Below, piece after piece: positions 708 through 9,547 of a DNA stretch of 14,938 nt. The DNA is from a virus (taxonomy: Duplodnaviria; Heunggongvirae; Uroviricota; Caudoviricetes). The stretch lies in IMG/VR virus record IMGVR_UViG_2690316148_000003; one strand, 5' to 3'. The notes under the pieces are model-generated. The model was given only the letters and a program-made list of their open reading frames with translations, had not been told where the DNA came from and did no database searches. Position 1 is the first letter of the stretch, and each line of letters begins with the position of its first letter. The translations under genes and the position numbers were made by a program.

Positions 708-3614
708 ATGAGTCCATCAGAACTTAGCGACCTGCTTTGGGCGCAGGTTGACAGGGTGGCTCCGCACCTGTTGCCAAACGGCAAGAAAGAGGGGCATGAG
801 TGGGTTGCCGGTAACGTCAACGGTGACAAGGGAAACAGCCTTAAGGTCAACCTTAGCGGTAAGAAAAAATGGGCTGATTTCGCTGAGGGAGACGGCGGTG
901 ACATGCTTGATTTGTGGATGGCATGTCGTGGAATTAACCTGCATCAGGCTATGCAGGAAGCGAAAGCATTTCTCGGTATCAAGGATGACGATCACCATTT
1001 CGATGCCAGACGTGAGAAGAAATTCTCCAGACCTGATCGCAAGAAAATCGCCCACTACGTTACCAGAACAGAATCCCATCTTGAGTACCTGCAATCGCGT
1101 GGCATATCGCCAGAAGTCGTAAAGCGCTACGAGGTTGTCAGCGGCAAGGTGTGGAATGGAGAACGAGAACTGGATGCTCTGGTGCTTCCGTACAAACGCG
1201 ATGGTGAGTTGTTGCAGGTCAAGCGAATCAGCACTGAGCGCCCGGACGGGAAGAAAGTCATTATGGCAGAAGGTGATTGCGAACCTTGCCTGTTCGGATG
1301 GCAGGCTCTGGACGCTGGCGTGAGGGCGGTTGTGCTTTGCGAAGGCGAAATTGATTGTATGAGCTATGCGCAATACGGCATCTCGGCGTTATCCGTGCCG
1401 TTTGGTGGCGGGAAAGGCGCTAAGCAACAGTGGATTGAGTTTGAGTATCACAACCTCGACAGGTTTGAGGAAATATTCATCTCGATGGACGTTGATGATG
1501 TTGGTCGTGAAGCCGCAAGGGAAATCGCAAGCCGACTCGGTGAACATCGTTGCCGTCTTGTTACTCTGCCGTACAAAGACATCAACGAATGCCTGATGAA
1601 CGGTGTTACCGAGGATGAAATCTGGCAGTACATCGGCACGGCATCCTACTTCGATCCTGAAGAACTCTACAGCGCGCGCGAGTTTTACCAGGACACTATC
1701 AACGCTTTCTACGGCAAGCAGCAGTATCTGTTTAATCCACCGTGGGAATCTCTGGCAGATAAATTCCAGTTCCGTGAGGCAGAGTTGACGCTGGTCAATG
1801 GTGTGAACGGTCACGGAAAGGCATGCCCACTGAATGAGCCTATTCTTTTAGCTGATGGGACATGGACTACTCACGGGAATGTAAAAATTGGCGATCAGGT
1901 GGCGTCAGTAGACGGCAATCCGTCAACTGTCACTGGGATATTCCCGCAGGGTGTTAGAGATGTTTACCGAGTCACATTTGAAGATGGTCGTTATGTTGAT
2001 TGCGCAGGCGATCACCTATGGGAGGTCACTAGTCGTGGATTCACGAAAGGCGAGAAACGCCGCGTGATAGATACCTTCGGGTTGAAGCGGTTGAGTGAAA
2101 CGAAGAGGCACAAAAATGGCGTTAGGATTCCTGAAATAACTGGTGACTTTGGCGACCACTCAGAGCCATTAGCATGGGTTATCGGCTCCCTTCTCGGGGA
2201 TGGTAGTCTTAGCAATGGGAGCGTGAAGTTTTCAAACGTCGAGCCATACATGATCGAGCGTATGAAGGCTGAACTGCCTGATTACAACTTCTCTGGAGAT
2301 GGTAAGGACTGGCTGATATCAACGGCGCGTGGTCAGGTAAATCCACTCATGGAGACCCTGCGAGGTTATGGACTAATGGGGTGCACAGCAAAAAACAAAT
2401 TCATCCCTCGTGTGTTTTTTTCCGCAAATAAATCAACGCGTATAGGCATGCTGTGTGGTCTGCTTGAAACGGATGGGTATGTCGAGAAGGATGGAACGCT
2501 TGTTTTTTCCTCAGCAAGTGAAAAACTGCGCAATGGGGTTGTTCAACTGGTTAACTCACTCGGCGGGTCATGCCGGACGCGAGTTAAAACTGGCGTGACA
2601 TACACATACAAGGACGATAAGCGGCATGGGATGGATTCATACGAGGCAAGAATCAGACTGACAAGAGAAATCAGGGAGGCCATCCGTTCACCACGACTCA
2701 ATGGCAGATTAACTGCGCATCGATTCGAGGGCTGTGGGGTATTCGTCAGGAATGTTGAAAAAATCGGCAATGCAGAATGCTTGTGTATTATGGTCGATCA
2801 CCCTCGCCACCTGTATGTAACCAGGGGATATGTGGCGACGCATAACACCGAGGTTGTCGGGCATATGGCACTTGAGGCAATGCGTCAGGGTGTGAAGACG
2901 TGCATCGCGTCACTTGAGCTGAAGCCTGGTATTCTCCTTAAGCGACTTACCCGTCAGGCAACGTGCTGCAAGATGCCGCCAGTGCTGGAAATTGACTCTG
3001 CATTTAAATTTTATGACGAAAGACTTTGGGTGTTTGGCCTGACCGGAACGGCGAAAGCCGACAGGCTGATCGAAATATTCGACTACGCTCGCCGCCGATA
3101 CGGCATCCAGTTATTCATTATCGACAGCCTGATGAAATGCGGCATAGGTGACGATGACTATAACGGGCAGAAAGCGTTTGTTGACTCGATTTGTGACTTC
3201 AAAAACAAAACAAACTCCCACGTCATTCTCGTTACTCACTCCAGAAAAGGAGACAGCGAAGAAAAACCAACCGGGAAAATGGACGTGAAAGGCTCTGGAG
3301 CGATAACAGACCTGACAGACAACCTTTTCATCATCTGGCGTAACAAGGCTCGCGAGAGAGCGTTACAGAGAGTTCAGAGTGGTGAAAAGATGTCAGAGAA
3401 GGACGAACAGCTACTGGCGTCTCCTGCATCTGTTTTGATGCTTGAAAAACAACGTAACGGCGAAGGCTGGGAAGGTGGTGTTCCGTTGTTCCTTGACGAG
3501 CAATCGCACCAGTTCCTGCAACTTGAATCAGGATCGCCATATAGCTACATCGCCAATATGCCGAAATCGGAATATGACGAGGCGTGGCGACAGGAAAACG
3601 TGACGGAGTATTAA
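708..3614 (+). CDS. Bifunctional DNA primase / SF4 (DnaB-like, T7 gp4-type) replicative helicase, interrupted by an intein
   Basis: 968-aa ORF. N-terminal region has Toprim-like acidic motifs (LCEGEIDCMSYA, ISMDVDDVGREA). C-terminal half resembles the T7 gp4 helicase domain: Walker A GVNGHGK...T, then IIDSLMKCG and VTHSRKG-type motifs. In-frame stop at 702-704 fixes the start at 708. Confidence 0.9.
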   Translation: MSPSELSDLLWAQVDRVAPHLLPNGKKEGHEWVAGNVNGDKGNSLKVNLSGKKKWADFAEGDGGDMLDLWMACRGINLHQAMQEAKAFLGIKDDDHHFDARREKKFSRPDRKKIAHYVTRTESHLEYLQSRGISPEVVKRYEVVSGKVWNGERELDALVLPYKRDGELLQVKRISTERPDGKKVIMAEGDCEPCLFGWQALDAGVRAVVLCEGEIDCMSYAQYGISALSVPFGGGKGAKQQWIEFEYHNLDRFEEIFISMDVDDVGREAAREIASRLGEHRCRLVTLPYKDINECLMNGVTEDEIWQYIGTASYFDPEELYSAREFYQDTINAFYGKQQYLFNPPWESLADKFQFREAELTLVNGVNGHGKACPLNEPILLADGTWTTHGNVKIGDQVASVDGNPSTVTGIFPQGVRDVYRVTFEDGRYVDCAGDHLWEVTSRGFTKGEKRRVIDTFGLKRLSETKRHKNGVRIPEITGDFGDHSEPLAWVIGSLLGDGSLSNGSVKFSNVEPYMIERMKAELPDYNFSGDGKDWLISTARGQVNPLMETLRGYGLMGCTAKNKFIPRVFFSANKSTRIGMLCGLLETDGYVEKDGTLVFSSASEKLRNGVVQLVNSLGGSCRTRVKTGVTYTYKDDKRHGMDSYEARIRLTREIREAIRSPRLNGRLTAHRFEGCGVFVRNVEKIGNAECLCIMVDHPRHLYVTRGYVATHNTEVVGHMALEAMRQGVKTCIASLELKPGILLKRLTRQATCCKMPPVLEIDSAFKFYDERLWVFGLTGTAKADRLIEIFDYARRRYGIQLFIIDSLMKCGIGDDDYNGQKAFVDSICDFKNKTNSHVILVTHSRKGDSEEKPTGKMDVKGSGAITDLTDNLFIIWRNKARERALQRVQSGEKMSEKDEQLLASPASVLMLEKQRNGEGWEGGVPLFLDEQSHQFLQLESGSPYSYIANMPKSEYDEAWRQENVTEY
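1821..2846 (+). mobile_element. Intein (Hint domain plus LAGLIDADG homing-endonuclease domain) inserted in the helicase Walker A motif
   Basis: Insert lies between GVNGHGK and TEVVGHMALEAM. It begins ACPLNEPILLADG (Ala codon 1821-1823, Cys codon 1824-1826) and ends YVATHN (Asn codon 2844-2846), followed by Thr at +1. Two LAGLIDADG-type motifs: LAWVIGSLLGDGSL (about 2169-2210) and IGMLCGLLETDGYV (about 2442-2483). Block-B-like GRYVDCAGDHLW and block-F-like ECLCIMVDHPRHLY. N-terminal boundary uncertain by one codon (1821 or 1824). Confidence 0.7.
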
Positions 3615-4324: not shown

Positions 4325-4621
4325 ATGAGCAAAGTATCACGAGGAATGAAAATATCGCTTATTTTCATCCTTAATCCGCATCGTATCTTTTTGGCTTCAG
4401 CAGTATGGCTGTCATATTTTGTTTATTGGTTAGCAGATAAATTGGATGATTTTGCGAAATGGCTTGAGAATTTTGCGAATGCGAGGTTTGAGTCATGGCC
4501 GCTTATCGGAGAGAAGATGTCTGACGAATTAAACCGGTATTACGCGGATAAGCGCAAGGAGAAGAGCAGGAGGGCAAGTGAAGCAATTATTCCTGCTTCG
4601 CAACGAAGCAATCAGAAATAA
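4325..4621 (+). CDS. Hypothetical protein with hydrophobic N-terminal segment (about 98 aa)
   Basis: AAGGAG at 4314-4319, 5 nt upstream of ATG 4325 (track ORF starts at GTG 4319). 3' end overlaps the ninB start by about 44 nt. Confidence 0.5.
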   Translation: MSKVSRGMKISLIFILNPHRIFLASAVWLSYFVYWLADKLDDFAKWLENFANARFESWPLIGEKMSDELNRYYADKRKEKSRRASEAIIPASQRSNQK

Positions 4622-5024
4622 CGCCATAGACGCCATTCTCTCACTACCCATCGACGACAAGTCACCCCACGAAGTCCACGTTAGAGAACCCAAACGCAGC
4701 AAAGCGCAGAATGACCGTATGTGGCCGATGCTGAACGATGTTTCGCGTCAGGTGCTATGGCATGGTCAACGGCTGGCGCCGGAAGACTGGAAAGACCTGT
4801 TCACTGCCCTGTGGCTTAAGACCAAAAAACTGGAGCAACGAAGTGCGCCTGGTATCGGCGGTGGCGTTGTCATGCTTGGCGTGCGTACCAGCAAAATGCG
4901 AAAGGCCAGCATGACTGAGCTTATCGAAATCATGTTCTGGTTCGGCTCAGAGCGCAACGTGCGGTGGAGTGATAACTCCCGGCGAGAGTATGAATGGTCA
5001 CAACGAACAGGGAGGGCGGCATGA
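4578..5024 (+). CDS. ninB: NinB (Orf-family recombination protein)
   Basis: 148-aa product resembles phage lambda NinB as recalled ([32 protein letters not shown]-terminal GRAA). GTG start at 4578. Confidence 0.85.
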
Positions 5025-5197
5025 GGCGACAGCGACGAAGTATTACCGACATAATCTGTGAAAACTGCAAATACCTTCCAACGAAACGCTCCAGAAATAA
5101 ACGCAAGCCAATCCCAAAAGAATCTGACGTAAAAACCTTCAACTACACGGCTCACCTGTGGGATATCCGGTGGCTAAGACATCGTGCGAGGAAATGA
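5021..5197 (+). CDS. ninE: NinE-family protein
   Basis: ATG at 5021 overlaps the ninB stop (ATGA), with GGAGGG just upstream. Product [38 protein letters not shown] matches lambdoid NinE as recalled. Confidence 0.7.
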
Positions 5198-5238
5198 CTA
5201 TTTATCCGGTGCGCCGCCAGAATGACGGCGCGGTGTGG

Positions 5239-5547
5239 TTAAACGAAGCGGATCTGGAGTTTTTTTCCAGTAGCGCGGGCGAATTTTTTTAGGGTGGCAA
5301 ATGATGGGCCGCTGATACCTGATGCGAGATTACTTTCCATTCTGGTGATCGCGGTCGCTTTTGTTCCCATTCGCTCGGCAACTTCAGCCTGAGTTAAGCC
5401 AGCTTCTTTGCGTGCTGCCAGCATTTCATCAAGCAGTGCGAATTCGTCAGCGATAGCGTCGTATTCTGCTTTAAAAGCCGGGTCTTCCATCCATTTGGCT
5501 GCCATTTCGTCGTGTGTCATGGTGGGGAGAGTGCGTTTACCAGTCAT
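5239..5547 (-). CDS. HTH (XRE-type) antitoxin / addiction-module antidote protein, HigA-like
   Basis: 102-aa product has a C-terminal HTH (GLTQAEVAERMGTKATAITRMES). Strong SD GAAGGAGG upstream on the minus strand. Overlaps the upstream toxin ORF by 11 nt. Confidence 0.8.
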   Translation of the reverse strand: MTGKRTLPTMTHDEMAAKWMEDPAFKAEYDAIADEFALLDEMLAARKEAGLTQAEVAERMGTKATAITRMESNLASGISGPSFATLKKFARATGKKLQIRFV

Positions 5548-5866
5548 GCTTAACCTCCTTCATTCTGGTTTCAGCTTTCTTGCGTTCGGCTGGCGGTGTT
5601 TTCTGCGTTTTCTTTACAAAACTATGCAGCATGATGATGCGTTTCCCTGTCAGAGTGCAGTAAAAAACACGCGCGATCCCATCGTTGCCTTTAATTCTGA
5701 GTTCGAAAAGTCCGTCACCAAAGGCGCTGGTGTGAGGTTCTCCGAGATTGCTGCCATATATCTTCATACGTTCAACGAGATGTTGGTATCGGGCACGCAT
5801 ACTCAATGGAAGCCGATCGACTTCCAGCCTTACATCTTCACTGTAGTATTCGATAGTGTAGTTCAT
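5537..5866 (-). CDS. RelE/ParE-superfamily toxin (Gp49-like / HigB-like addiction-module killer protein)
   Basis: About 110 aa from the internal Met (MNYTIEYYSEDVRLEVDRLP...RVFYCTLTGKRIIMLHSFVKKTQKTPPAERKKAE). Toxin-first gene order, as in HigB/HigA modules. Start uncertain: ATG at 5866 or 5878; the track's longer N-terminal extension is unlikely. Confidence 0.75.
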   Translation of the reverse strand: MNYTIEYYSEDVRLEVDRLPLSMRARYQHLVERMKIYGSNLGEPHTSAFGDGLFELRIKGNDGIARVFYCTLTGKRIIMLHSFVKKTQKTPPAERKKAETRMKEVKHDW

Positions 5867-5876
5867 AGGTATCAAC

Positions 5877-5892
5877 ATAACAAAATTGTTAT
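5877..5892. promoter_or_regulatory. Inverted repeat ATAACAA-AA-TTGTTAT at the toxin start; candidate operator for antitoxin autoregulation
   Basis: 7-bp perfect arms with 2-bp spacer, seen directly. It overlaps the alternative toxin start codon and a TATAAC -10-like hexamer on the minus strand. Confidence 0.4.
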
Positions 5893-6001
5893 ATGCATTC
5901 AAGGCCTGTAGTTGACGACAACACATATCCGGGGCTATATTCCTCACGCGCCAGCAAAATCTGGCGTCGGGATTGGAACCCCGGATATCGAAACGGTGCA
6001 T

Positions 6002-6021
6002 ACCGCGCTGGCGGTTTTTTT
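6002..6021 (+). terminator. Candidate rho-independent terminator (plus orientation)
   Basis: ACCGC-GCTG-GCGGT hairpin followed by seven T (6015-6021). Short stem, so moderate confidence. Confidence 0.4.
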
Positions 6022-6184
6022 ATGCGCTAAGCACAGTCACATTCGCGATTTATGGCGGGCTGTGTGGGGGCACCGAAAGGTGCGCCGGATGTTTCGACCG
6101 GTAGTTCCAACCCTGCACAGTTCGCCACCCGATGATTGGAACCTGAAGGTGGTGAGGTAAAAATTATCGAAACGCGAGGTCGTT

Positions 6185-6871
6185 ATGACTGTTCAAGTTG
6201 CTGTCAAAAACCTTTCCCCTGTCACTTATAACCAGATTCCTGTAATCACAACTGAGTTACTCGCCCGCCTTTACGGAACAGAAGCAATCCGTATACAGCA
6301 GAATCACCATGAAAATAAATCTCGATTTATTGAGGGAAAACACTTCTTTAAAGCTGTTGGTGATGAGCTCAAAAATTTGCGACTAGTTTTAAACGAGTCG
6401 CAAAATGAGGTGAAAATTTCTCCAAAAACCCGCTCCCTCATCCTCTGGACAGAACGCGGCGCAGCTCGTCACGCGAAGATGCTCGAAACCGATCAGGCAT
6501 GGGACGTGTTCGAAAAACTGGAAGACTGCTATTTCAGCCAGACTTCGAAAAGCGCAGGTCATCACGAGAAGAAAACCAGCGAGCTTTCTGCAAAAGATGC
6601 AAACAGTCTGGTATGGTTGTGGGATTATGCCAACCGCTCACAGGCATTATTCCGCGAACTGTATCCGGCGCTAAGACAAATTCAGTCTAACTATTCCGGC
6701 AGATGCCACGACTACGGTCATGAGTTCTCGTATGTTATCGGAATGGCGAGAGACGTTTTAATCAATCACACACGAGATGTTGATATTAATGAGCCAGACG
6801 GACCAACGAATCTTTCTGCATGGGTAAGACTTAAGAACAAAGAATTACCTCCTTCACTACATCACTACTGA
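6185..6871 (+). CDS. ORF6N-domain (antirepressor-type N-terminal domain) protein with an unassigned C-terminal half
   Basis: GAGGT RBS 4 nt before ATG 6185. N-terminal region ([16 protein letters not shown]...[22 protein letters not shown]...[15 protein letters not shown]) fits the ORF6N pattern as recalled. C-terminal ~110 aa not recognised. Confidence 0.7.
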
Positions 6872-6914: not shown

Positions 6915-6945
6915 TGCTGAATTTTCAATATGAGAGGACATGACA

Positions 6946-7200
6946 ATGAACGAGCTGATAAATAGCAACGCCATCAAAATGACCAGCATTGAAATCGCTG
7001 AGTTGGTGGGTAAGCGTCATGACAATGTGAAACGTACCATCGAAACGCTGGTTAAAAGTGGAGTTATCCGGCTTCCTCAAATTGAGGTTTCCGAAAGAAT
7101 CAATAACTTAGGGTTCAATGTTCAGTACGAGCATTACGTCTTCGAAGGCGAACAAGGTAAGCGCGACAGCATTATTGTCGTTGAAGGAGGTGTTGCATGA
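6946..7200 (+). CDS. Rha-family phage regulatory protein (short, Rha domain only)
   Basis: MTSIEIAELVGKRHDNVKRTIETL matches the Rha N-terminal motif as recalled. GAGAGGA RBS favours ATG 6946 over the track's 6940. Stop overlaps the next start (ATGA). Confidence 0.75.
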   Translation: MNELINSNAIKMTSIEIAELVGKRHDNVKRTIETLVKSGVIRLPQIEVSERINNLGFNVQYEHYVFEGEQGKRDSIIVVEGGVA

Positions 7201-7967
7201 ATGCCGTAATTATTGCCAACGCAGAAATCGTGCCGATTGAGTTTAATGGCGAGCGTGTTGTTACGTATCAAATGATTGCTGATATTCACGGGGTTCCAGT
7301 AGCCACTATTCAAAATGGCTATGCGCGAAACTCTGAGTATTTCATAGACAGGGAAGATACATATTTTATTGATTTTCATGAAAATACCTTTAGAAGGGGT
7401 TTTGAAATTCCTCCTCGTGGCATGCGAGTTTTCACTGAATCAGGCTATTTGATGCTGGTTAAAACCCTGCGCGACGAGACGGCGTGGAGAGTGCAACGTG
7501 AGCTTGTTCGCAATTATTTTCGTGGCCAAAAAGAAGATAAGTCAGCCTTGCCCGACTTCACAAACCCTGCTGAAGCCGCCAGAGCGTGGGCAAACGAATA
7601 TGAGCAGAAAGTGAAGCTGGAGCAACAACTCGCGATTGCCGCACCTAAAGTTGAGTTTGCCGATCGCGTTGGCGAGGCCAGCGGAATTTTGATTGGAAAC
7701 TTTGCAAAGGTTGTTGGTATTGGCCCAAACAAACTGTTTGCGTGGATGCGTGATCACAAAATCCTTATTGCTTCAGGTTCCCGGCGCAATGTGCCAATGC
7801 AGGAATATATGGATCGCGGCTATTTCACAGTGAAAGAAACAGCGGTCAACACAAATCACGGAATACAGATATCGTTCACCACAAAAATCACCGGGCGTGG
7901 TCAACAGTGGCTGACCAGAAAGCTGCTCGATAACGGAATGCTGAAAGTAACAGGGGAGGCTGCATGA
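7197..7967 (+). CDS. Phage antirepressor: N-terminal ORF6N/AntA-like domain plus C-terminal KilA-C (ANT) domain
   Basis: 256 aa. N-terminal ARNSEYFIDREDTYFI-type motif; C-terminal LFAWMRDHKILIASGSRRNVPMQEYMDRGYF resembles KilA-C. Translationally coupled at both ends. Confidence 0.8.
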   Translation: MNAVIIANAEIVPIEFNGERVVTYQMIADIHGVPVATIQNGYARNSEYFIDREDTYFIDFHENTFRRGFEIPPRGMRVFTESGYLMLVKTLRDETAWRVQRELVRNYFRGQKEDKSALPDFTNPAEAARAWANEYEQKVKLEQQLAIAAPKVEFADRVGEASGILIGNFAKVVGIGPNKLFAWMRDHKILIASGSRRNVPMQEYMDRGYFTVKETAVNTNHGIQISFTTKITGRGQQWLTRKLLDNGMLKVTGEAA

Positions 7968-8326: not shown

Positions 8327-8511
8327 ACGCCACAATTCAAACGATACCAGAGCTTCTTATCCAGACACGAGGCAATCAGACCGAAGTGGCGAGGATGCTT
8401 TCCTGCGCAAGAGGAACAGTGCTCAAGTACAACCGAGACAGCAAAGGCGAGCGTCACGTAATAGTTAACGGCGTCCTGATGGTCAAACAGGGCAAGAGGG
8501 GAAGACGATGA
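8323..8511 (+). CDS. ninH: NinH-like protein
   Basis: 62 aa. GNQTEVARMLSCARGTVLKY...VIVNGVLMV resembles lambda NinH. Located immediately upstream of Q, as in lambda. Confidence 0.65.
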   Translation: MNATIQTIPELLIQTRGNQTEVARMLSCARGTVLKYNRDSKGERHVIVNGVLMVKQGKRGRR

Positions 8512-9131
8512 GACTCGAAAGCGTAGCTAAATTTCATTCGCCAAAAAGCCCGATGATGAGCGACTCACCACGGGCTACGGCTTCTGACTCTCTTTCCGGT
8601 ACTGATGTGATGGCTGCTATGGGGATGGCGCAATCACAAGCCGGATTCGGAATGGCTGCATTTTGCGGTAAGCATGAACTCAGCCAGAACGACAAACAAA
8701 AGGCTATCAACTATCTGATGCAATTTGCACACAAGGTATCGGGGAAATACCGTGGTGTGGCAAAGCTCGAAGGAAATACTAAGGCAAAGGTACTGCAAGT
8801 GCTCGCAACATTCGCTTATGCGGATTATTGCCGTAGTGCCGCGACGCCGGGCGCAAGATGCAGAGATTGCCACGGAACAGGTCTGGCAGTTGATATAGCC
8901 AAAACAGAGCAGTGGGGGAGAGTTGTCGAGAAAGAGTGCGGAAGATGCAAAGGTGTCGGCTATTCAAGGATGCCAGCAAGTGCAGCATATCGCGCTGTAA
9001 CGATGCTAATCCCAAACCTCACCCAACCCACATGGTCACGCACTGTTAAGCCGCTGTATGACGCTCTGGTGGTGCAATGCCACAAAGAAGAGTCAATCGC
9101 AGACAACATTTTGAATGCGGTCACACGTTAG
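8508..9131 (+). CDS. Q: Late-gene antiterminator Q (lambda-type)
   Basis: 207-aa product appears essentially identical to phage lambda Q as recalled (MRLESVAKFHSPKSPMMSDSPRATASDSLSG...CRDCHGTG...CGRCKGVGYSRMP...NAVTR). Confidence 0.9.
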   Translation: MRLESVAKFHSPKSPMMSDSPRATASDSLSGTDVMAAMGMAQSQAGFGMAAFCGKHELSQNDKQKAINYLMQFAHKVSGKYRGVAKLEGNTKAKVLQVLATFAYADYCRSAATPGARCRDCHGTGLAVDIAKTEQWGRVVEKECGRCKGVGYSRMPASAAYRAVTMLIPNLTQPTWSRTVKPLYDALVVQCHKEESIADNILNAVTR

Positions 9132-9391: not shown

Positions 9392-9466
9392 GGGTCAGTC
9401 GTATAAAGGTCATTACGGAAGGCTGTTAACCTTCTTATCGTTGTTCGAGTCCACGCTGTCCCGCCA
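9392..9466 (+). tRNA. tRNA-like gene, anticodon GUU (Asn), with mismatches in acceptor, D and T stems; possibly degenerate
   Basis: Hand-folded cloverleaf: acceptor GGGTCAG/CTGTCCC (one T-T mismatch), perfect anticodon stem GAAGG/CCTTC with loop CTGTTAA, T-loop TTCGAGT, discriminator G, encoded CCA. Confidence 0.45.
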
Positions 9467-9471
9467 AATAT

Positions 9472-9547
9472 GCTGGTTTAGCTCTAATGGTAGAGCAGTC
9501 GCCTTGTAAGCGAATGGGTAGCGGTTCAAGTCCGTTAACCAGCACCA
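9472..9547 (+). tRNA. tRNA, anticodon UGU (Thr)
   Basis: Hand-folded cloverleaf: perfect 7-bp acceptor stem GCTGGTT/AACCAGC, D-stem GCTC/GAGC, anticodon loop CTTGTAA, T-arm AGCGG-TTCAAGT-CCGTT, discriminator A, encoded CCA. 76 nt. Confidence 0.75.

Follow-up and report, generated by a model that had tools for sequence, protein, structure and literature searches.

The locus considered here raises the question of what a pair of overlapping genes that runs against the direction of all its neighbours is, how it is controlled, and how it came to be where it is. The locus is part of IMG/VR record IMGVR_UViG_2690316148_000003 (Caudoviricetes), a stretch of 14,938 nucleotides (nt) that we refer to as the window and that is a segment of a lambdoid prophage. 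A first-pass annotation, made by a model from the sequence letters and their open reading frames (ORFs), had described the pair as a toxin-antitoxin module and as the only minus-strand genes of the window. On the latter point the ORF list, the domain matches and RefSeq's annotation of a near-identical locus in E. coli VL40 agree, all other credible genes being on the plus strand. Our reading, which we hold to be likely, is that the two genes form an intact type II toxin-antitoxin operon belonging to the Gp49-like (Tad-Ata or reverse-order HigBA) family.

Gene-pair conservation, family, fold, catalytic residues, mobility of the cassette, and promoter and operator together with their protein-DNA covariation were all computed. 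The module is an already automatically annotated member of a well-known and large toxin-antitoxin family, and the pair as such is of little import: there are more than 2,800 protein clusters, the biochemistry is established in relatives, and RefSeq labels exist. What is new here is a conserved layout of promoter and operator across about 90 loci from about 80 species.

The toxin and antitoxin genes

The toxin gene (5537-5866, minus strand) encodes 109 amino acids and is assigned to the Gp49-like proteins of RelE fold (HigB/Tad type) from its Pfam match, a fold model and its homologues. The antitoxin gene (5239-5547, minus strand) encodes 102 amino acids, comprising an N-terminal extension of about 40 residues and a C-terminal Xre/Cro helix-turn-helix (HTH) domain. 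As the first-pass annotation had stated, and as the ORF coordinates confirm, the toxin gene precedes the antitoxin gene with an overlap of 11 nt (antitoxin ATG 5547-5545, toxin stop codon 5539-5537). A Shine-Dalgarno sequence for the antitoxin, AGGAGG at 5554-5559 (minus strand), can be read from the sequence within the toxin gene, 6 nt 5' of the antitoxin ATG.

The types that had been proposed for the two proteins, a Gp49/HigB-type toxin and an HTH antitoxin, are borne out by profile searches, by the structure 6AF3 and by the predicted fold. The toxin matches Pfam Gp49 (PF05973, DUF891) with 90.3 bits (cut-off 23.9, E=8.3e-26) over profile positions 3-90 of 90, and the antitoxin matches HTH_3 with 43.5 bits (cut-off 23, E=3.4e-11). 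Gp49 was the sole match to the toxin in the Pfam scan at E<=0.01; the canonical HigB model, HigB-like_toxin, was not matched. NCBIfam gave sub-threshold matches only (TIGR02683, the upstrm_HI1419 RelE/ParE toxin, 21.1 bits vs a cut-off of 62.85). RefSeq labels identical proteins "type II toxin-antitoxin system RelE/ParE family toxin" and "helix-turn-helix domain-containing protein", and the record of PhiR5_2 names the pair HigB/HigA. Homologues fall into 2,873 clusters, and in 80 of 81 species-level loci the gene directly 3' of the toxin encodes an antitoxin homologue, the remaining locus ending at a contig edge.

A sequence search of the PDB returned S. pneumoniae HigB (6af3_A, E=1.5e-5) as the best match of the toxin and S. 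pneumoniae HigA (6af3_B, E=1e-3) as the best match of the antitoxin. Since these are chains A and B of 6AF3, the two proteins point independently to one HigBA complex. The AlphaFold (AF2) model of the toxin, based on 53 homologues and with a predicted local distance difference test (pLDDT) score of 89.8, begins with two helices, continues with a sheet of four strands and ends in a long helix (residues 92-108), so that the toxin as modelled has a RelE-type alpha/beta fold. Its top Foldseek matches are S. pneumoniae HigB (6AF4; template modelling (TM) score 0.74-0.77) and M. tuberculosis HigB1 (7NBU; TM 0.70), the latter in both free and ribosome-bound structures, followed by YafQ, RelE and V. 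cholerae HigB2.

In a phmmer alignment, residues E55, R57, F83 and K85 of the toxin correspond to E66, R68, F90 and K92 of S. pneumoniae HigB, and R66 is the probable equivalent of R73, where a gap shifts the alignment. The segment F83-V-K85-K-T-Q88-K89 has the same spacing as F93, K95, Q98 and K99 of M. tuberculosis HigB1, which are listed among the catalytic, mutation-sensitive or toxicity-determining residues of that protein (PMC9098466). Positions E55, R57, K59, R66, F83, K85 and K86 of the toxin are invariant across the 53 homologues, and the aligned catalytic positions as a set, Q88 and K89 included, vary little or not at all. Because the catalytic residues are kept and do not vary among homologues, the toxin looks catalytically competent.

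Comparison with the defence systems in PADLOC-DB gave no system-level match: the toxin aligns with NsnC over no more than 50 residues, locally and at the C-terminal end of the latter, and the antitoxin gave generic HTH matches only. Membership in an anti-phage system catalogued by PADLOC was rejected on account of these partial-domain matches.

The start of the toxin was assessed by comparison of seven related loci, namely the window, E. coli VL40, POCJ13, PhiR5_2, G1/2, A34 and TUM9812. It is taken to be the ATG at 5866 (MNYTIEYY..., 109 amino acids), which is also the start chosen by RefSeq (PGAP) for E. coli VL40. Two longer readings were rejected. An in-frame ATG at 5878 (MLIPMNYT...) lies inside the conserved -10 hexamer and operator described below; in TUM9812 a stop codon follows this upstream ATG, and the four codons that separate it from the ATG at 5866 are free to vary (LIP, IIT, FTL). 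The other reading is an ORF of 154 amino acids that extends to 6001. Neither fits the length of family members, typically 109-111 amino acids in the homologue clusters.

Two observations on related loci concern the integrity and divergence of the pair. In PhiR5_2 (L004, ~3159-3161) the toxin start codon reads ATA instead of ATG, with the remaining ORF and the antitoxin intact; in this phage, which is propagated on K-12, the toxin may have been silenced in this way. Divergence between the window and loci L004 and L005 is mosaic: toxin residues 1-60 and antitoxin residues 14-24 differ strongly between lineages, and at the toxin C-terminus and in the antitoxin HTH the lineages hardly differ. This pattern may reflect co-evolving interaction surfaces.

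Promoter, operator and translation signals

Close to the toxin start lies the palindrome ATAACAAAATTGTTAT (ATAACAA-AA-TTGTTAT), a 7+2+7 inverted repeat at 5877-5892 that was identified by an inverted-repeat search and by its conservation in the family. The first-pass annotation had noted this repeat, and its letters are found at exactly these positions; its description as lying at the toxin start is less accurate, as the palindrome ends 10 nt upstream of the ATG at 5866. The core ATAAC-N6-GTTAT occurs once in the window vs 0.01 occurrences expected. That count, the profile E-values of 8e-26 and 3e-11, the thousands of homologous clusters, and the conservation of the pair, promoter and operator refute the notion that ORFs and repeat arose by chance on the minus strand of a phage early region, a notion that has only the general frequency of antisense ORFs in its favour and that we regard as vanishingly improbable.

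Conservation of the upstream region was analysed in a sample of 80 loci from a one-genome-per-species collection, mostly Beta- and Gammaproteobacteria and Nitrospira, with toxin identities of 58-89%. The upstream flanks of the sampled loci are unrelated to each other save for one block, which reads TTGnnn-N3-AATAACATATTTGT-TATTAT-N6/7-ATG or GTG. Of 93 loci, 85 have the palindromic core TA[AC]C-N6-G[GT]TA (family core TAAC-N6-GTTA), and in 75 of these 85 the palindrome ends 10-11 nt 5' of the start codon. The TTG of the -35 hexamer is kept in 74-82% of loci, with a spacer of 17 nt to the -10 hexamer, whose consensus is TAttAT and whose final T is found in 99% of loci, 6-7 nt 5' of the start codon. 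All E. coli, Shigella and Salmonella contexts have this -35 element, equally spaced. The window fits the family layout, with a putative -35 hexamer TTGAAT (5902-5897, minus strand), a 17-nt spacer, a putative -10 hexamer TATGTT (5879-5874, minus strand) and another 7 nt before the ATG. The operator fills the promoter spacer and overlaps the -10 hexamer, as it should if autorepression works by sterically excluding RNA polymerase.

Symmetric changes of the half-sites were found in three loci only, reading TACC..GGTA in one Methylotenera and one Glaciimonas locus and TAGC..GCTA in a second Methylotenera locus. In all three of these loci the recognition helix of the antitoxin starts with MGSTAPAVSR or MGVSAPVVSR. 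The loci with the canonical operator retain the recognition helix MGT[KQH]A..A[VI][AT]R (none of about 72 altered). Since the changes in the half-sites co-vary with the recognition helix, the comparison speaks for a dimer-binding palindrome that the HTH domain of the antitoxin reads, and the variants can be seen as natural specificity variants of operator and helix. Occurrence in the great majority of loci, a fixed distance from the start codon and covariation with the recognition helix thus uphold the earlier suggestion of a likely autoregulatory operator, and the identification of the palindrome as the control site of the toxin-antitoxin operon itself is strongly supported by these sequence comparisons.

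The short distance between the -10 hexamer and the start codon has a further consequence, as 6-7 nt leave no room for a Shine-Dalgarno sequence at the toxin. Because the start codon follows the -10 hexamer so closely, the toxin mRNA is most likely leaderless or nearly so.

Cassette boundaries and mobility

The genes do not belong to the lambda backbone order, and the first-pass annotation had taken them for an acquired moron. Phages with an empty site and the presence of the same block elsewhere in two other phages bear this out. In JLK-2012, 23 nt stand in place of window positions 5195-5925 (731 nt), and the empty site matches the window only at 5011-5194 and 5926-6283. Similarly, ninE is directly followed by the ant control region in JLK-2012, YYZ-2008, 24B, Min27 and many Stx2a phages. 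Because the empty site holds 23 nt vs 731 nt in the window, the pair is an insertion relative to the ninE-ant backbone. Moreover, a 719-bp block corresponding to 5211-5929 is found with 92% identity in the Shigella phages POCJ13 and 75/02 Stx at another position, upstream of ninB. These data support the description of the toxin-antitoxin pair as an acquired, mobile cassette of about 720 bp. The module had been drawn at 5239-5892, which is exact for the genes and the repeat; as judged from the shared block and the empty sites, the cassette runs further, from 5211 to 5929 (719 bp, minus strand), and comprises a hairpin, the antitoxin, the toxin, the operator and promoter, and an outward-facing TTGACG. 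It is rare: among 5,426 complete E. coli genomes 31 carry it, all of them in the chromosome, and it was found in three distinct phages.

The hairpin (5211-5231, minus strand) is GC-rich, forms the 3' end of the cassette 8 nt past the antitoxin stop codon, and is kept in all seven related loci. When read on the toxin-antitoxin transcript it has a predicted folding energy of -18 kcal/mol (z = -2.9), as compared with z = -1.0 for the plus strand, and it could be a terminator or a 3' stabiliser. Its classification as a canonical intrinsic terminator was rejected, as it was not called by the terminator scan and has no U-run.

A direct repeat, TATCCGG, flanks the cassette at 5203-5209 and 5926-5932. 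It was rejected as a target-site duplication because the window contains seven copies of this 7-mer and the sequence at the empty site is TATTCGG. The repeat is weak evidence for what may have been microhomology-mediated recombination.

The neighbouring antirepressor unit

The pair had been described as flanked by convergent and divergent intergenic regions. This description holds for the orientation of the flanks, but the divergent region is not empty: it contains a plus-strand promoter, isrK and a C4 RNA. The promoter (TTGACG-18-TATATT, 5912-5941, plus strand; 10/12 in the promoter scan) lies outside the toxin-antitoxin gene pair, and alignments of the cassette junctions place its -35 hexamer TTGACG (5912-5917) inside the cassette and its -10 hexamer in the backbone. 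It is followed on the plus strand by c4-a1b1 targets (5935-5987; Rfam, 50 bits), by isrK (5948-6021; Rfam, 72 bits), which ends in an intrinsic terminator identified by the terminator scan at 6002-6021, and by a C4 antisense RNA (6048-6132; Rfam, 75 bits), all three above the Rfam gathering scores. The C4 RNA lies just upstream of the antirepressor gene ant (6185-6871, plus strand), which has domain matches to ORF6N and P22_AR_C. From these matches, the segment 5912-6132 together with ant is identified as a complete antirepressor control unit of the P1-immI or Gifsy-1-IsrK type. The promoters of this unit and of the toxin-antitoxin operon are arranged back-to-back, with their -35 hexamers 9 bp apart.

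The close arrangement raises the possibility that the cassette is functionally coupled to the isrK/C4-antirepressor unit. The HTH protein could also control the isrK/ant promoter, as Mnt controls the ant promoter in the mnt/ant arrangement of P22, or else activation of the toxin could feed antirepressor expression or prophage induction. Two kinds of observation favour such coupling. One is the arrangement of the promoters, including the use of the cassette's own TTGACG as the -35 hexamer of the isrK promoter. The other is the recurrence of the neighbourhood: the operon is divergent from a C4-type RNA and an antirepressor, at about 50-350 bp, in the window, VL40, PhiR5_2, G1/2, A34 and TUM9812, and likewise in Salmonella and Edwardsiella ictaluri, even though the RNA units differ in sequence type (isrK with C4, or sRNA-Xcc1). 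Against this, a C4-type RNA was found near the homologous pair in only one (Edwardsiella ictaluri) of 40 species-level loci scanned outside this clade of enterobacterial prophages, and operator and promoter are the same across the species-level set. The POCJ13 cassette also has no adjacent isrK unit. Coupling across the family was consequently rejected, and control of isrK/ant by the HTH protein appears unlikely, as does, to the same extent, a contribution of the toxin to antirepressor expression or induction. The operator and promoter of the toxin-antitoxin family are the same whatever the neighbour, and conservation of the operator where no C4-type RNA is nearby implies that it serves the toxin-antitoxin operon itself.

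The position next to the antirepressor unit is occupied by a different pair in other phages. PA2-like Stx phages (45 Stx1a/Stx2a records) carry a 69-nt relic of the 3' end of the antitoxin gene with about 90% identity. In phage vB_EcoP_phi346 (L094), and likewise in those records, this relic is intergenic (2001-2068 in L094) and adjoins a gene for a ParD-type antitoxin with a 93-amino-acid partner; the ParD-type pair is also divergent from isrK, C4 and an ORF6N antirepressor. The arrangement suggests that the position is a recombination or insertion slot in which toxin-antitoxin cassettes may replace one another. A different pair beside the relic speaks for a hot spot of recombination or insertion rather than for a specific coupling. 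We consider it unlikely that in enterobacterial lambdoid prophages the slot upstream of and divergent from C4/isrK-ant is dedicated to toxin-antitoxin cassettes and wired to the antirepressor switch. If it were, the antitoxin or the toxin-antitoxin complex would modulate the isrK/ant promoter, or toxin activation would bias prophage induction. The recurrence of toxin-antitoxin cassettes beside C4/isrK-antirepressor units, in Stx-type and other lambdoid prophages, bears on how stable prophages are and how they are induced in pathogenic E. coli and Shigella.

Other features were noted near homologous cassettes. In Edwardsiella ictaluri prophages (L008-L010), a second Gp49/HTH pair and a ParE/ParD-like pair lie within a few kb of the homologous cassette, and toxin-antitoxin pairs are thus dense in the nin-equivalent region of these prophages. 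Two to three tandem isrK-C4 units are present in E. coli A34 (L006 3204-4133, with a period of about 370 nt) and TUM9812 (L007 3237-4414), inside coding sequences (CDSs) annotated as "ash family" or "Rha family"; the alternatives are that the CDS calls are spurious in part or that genuine coding sequence contains the RNA units. The toxin homologue of two unrelated species has, within about 1 kb upstream, a HEARO (IS605-type) RNA in one case (L019 1584-1797) and a c-di-GMP-I riboswitch in the other (L016 2059-2137), a proximity that is probably incidental.

Comparison with known systems

Toxins with a Gp49 domain are assigned to the Tad-Ata or reverse-order HigBA group, in which the toxin gene comes first and is followed by an Xre-type HTH antitoxin (PMC2701414, PMC5906591). 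The founding examples, as these two papers cite them from Dziewit et al. 2007, are tad-ata of pAMI2, gp49/gp48 of prophage N15 and s045/s044 of SXT. The module in the window resembles this group in its Gp49/DUF891/COG4679 toxin, its Xre-type HTH antitoxin, the toxin-first order and carriage by a prophage or mobile element, the match being one at the level of the family only. It differs in that this copy is located in the nin region of an integrated lambdoid prophage, as opposed to a plasmid-like replicon.

Among individual systems, HigBA of S. pneumoniae (6AF3/6AF4) gives both the best PDB sequence match for the two proteins and the best structural match. The toxins have in common the E, R, F and K catalytic positions, a KxTQKTP motif and the long C-terminal helix. 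However, the identity is only about 20%, and the streptococcal locus is chromosomal in a Gram-positive host. To our knowledge, the operator sequence of S. pneumoniae HigBA is unrelated to the operator described here.

M. tuberculosis HigB1 of the TAC system (7NBU/7AWK; PMC9098466), a ribosome-dependent mRNase, has a Gp49-like RelE fold and shares the F-x-K-x-x-Q-K motif. Unlike in TAC, where the third gene encodes a SecB-like chaperone, the antitoxin is followed here by the hairpin and the convergent ninE: no chaperone gene was found downstream of the antitoxin, whose stop at 5239 is followed by the hairpin and then by the end of ninE at 5197. V. cholerae HigB2-HigA2 (5JA8; PMC11006873) is similar in its toxin-first order, the N-terminal neutralising region and the C-terminal operator-binding HTH, but its toxin is a weaker structural match (TM ~0.55, E ~0.05) and has no sequence match at E<=1. 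The canonical HigB of Proteus Rts1 and E. coli K-12 likewise belongs to the RelE superfamily and is encoded before an HTH antitoxin. It differs in that the toxin of the window matched the Gp49 Pfam model and not HigB-like_toxin, in line with the small similarity of Gp49-domain toxins to canonical HigBs (PMC5906591).

Proposed mechanism and role

The toxin would act as a ribosome-dependent mRNA endonuclease, as indicated by its fold and catalytic residues, and the antitoxin would neutralise it, probably via the roughly 40 residues that extend it N-terminally, as S. pneumoniae HigA and V. cholerae HigA2 suggest by analogy. A dimer of the antitoxin is predicted to bind the palindrome at 5877-5892 through its C-terminal HTH domain and, once on the operator, to block the operon's own sigma-70 promoter, such that the operon would repress itself; the comparative support for this step is strong. 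The toxin would be translated from a leaderless mRNA that has no Shine-Dalgarno sequence and the antitoxin from a perfect AGGAGG, and these unequal translation signals would lead to an excess of antitoxin despite the toxin-first order. Applied to the whole family, a regulatory model of this kind (spacer operator, leaderless toxin, strong antitoxin ribosome-binding site) would explain how a toxin-first operon attains an antitoxin excess. Because the operon has its own promoter and is oriented against PR-driven early transcription, it should be expressed in the lysogen. By analogy with family members on N15, SXT and pAMI2, for which stabilisation is a precedent (Dziewit et al. 2007, as reported in PMC2701414 and PMC5906591), its most likely role would be that of a selfish addiction or stabilisation cassette; possibly it may also serve in defence against superinfecting phage.

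Several points weigh against an intact and active operon of this type. The promoter has only 8 of 12 matches to the sigma-70 consensus and was missed by a simple promoter scan, and the hairpin after the antitoxin has no U-run. With regard to the leaderless model, about one third of the family members start with GTG, and on leaderless mRNA GUG is a poor start codon in E. coli. A literature search that included POCJ13, 75/02 Stx and toxin-antitoxin pairs with isrK found no experiment or publication on this module. The ATA start codon of PhiR5_2 indicates that toxin expression can be lost while the cassette stays, and Gp49-family toxins that are not toxic do exist, namely the M. tuberculosis paralogues HigB2 and HigB3, although these are devoid of several of the catalytic residues that the toxin of the window keeps (PMC9098466). 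The last two points, together with a toxin that has no Shine-Dalgarno sequence, could be taken to mean that the pair is a decayed or domesticated remnant in which the toxin is dead or unexpressed and the HTH protein acts as a transcription factor only. We consider this quite improbable, given that the toxin retains every catalytic-site residue, none of which varies across the family, that both ORFs are intact and full-length in seven of seven enterobacterial contexts, and that the missing Shine-Dalgarno sequence is family-wide and tied to the conserved position of the -10 hexamer, which makes it a design feature rather than a sign of decay.

Other features of the window

The remaining genes of the window are on the plus strand. 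To the left of the cassette lie a gene for a replication protein of the Toprim/AAA_25 primase-helicase type (708-3614, 968 amino acids), ninB (4578-5024) and ninE (4994-5197), which is convergent to the antitoxin gene. To the right, ant is followed by an 86-amino-acid ORF (6940-7200) that abuts a gene for an ORF6N-ANT antirepressor (7197-7967), then by rusA, ninH and Q (8508-9131), and finally by two tRNA genes, the lysis genes and the genes for an HNH endonuclease, the terminase and the portal protein.

The tRNA genes, tRNA-Asn(GTT) and tRNA-Thr(TGT), are located at 9392-9547 (plus strand) between Q and the holin gene. This is the position at which the tRNA genes of Stx phages come before stx; the window has no toxin genes there. 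The Toprim/AAA_25 replication protein is broken up at residues ~379-634 by Hom_end-associated Hint and LAGLIDADG_3 domains, an insert that looks like an intein with a homing endonuclease. The 86-amino-acid ORF matches the Phage_pRha domain over domain positions 1-27 only and looks like a truncated Rha gene; its equivalent in VL40 is annotated as a pseudogene.

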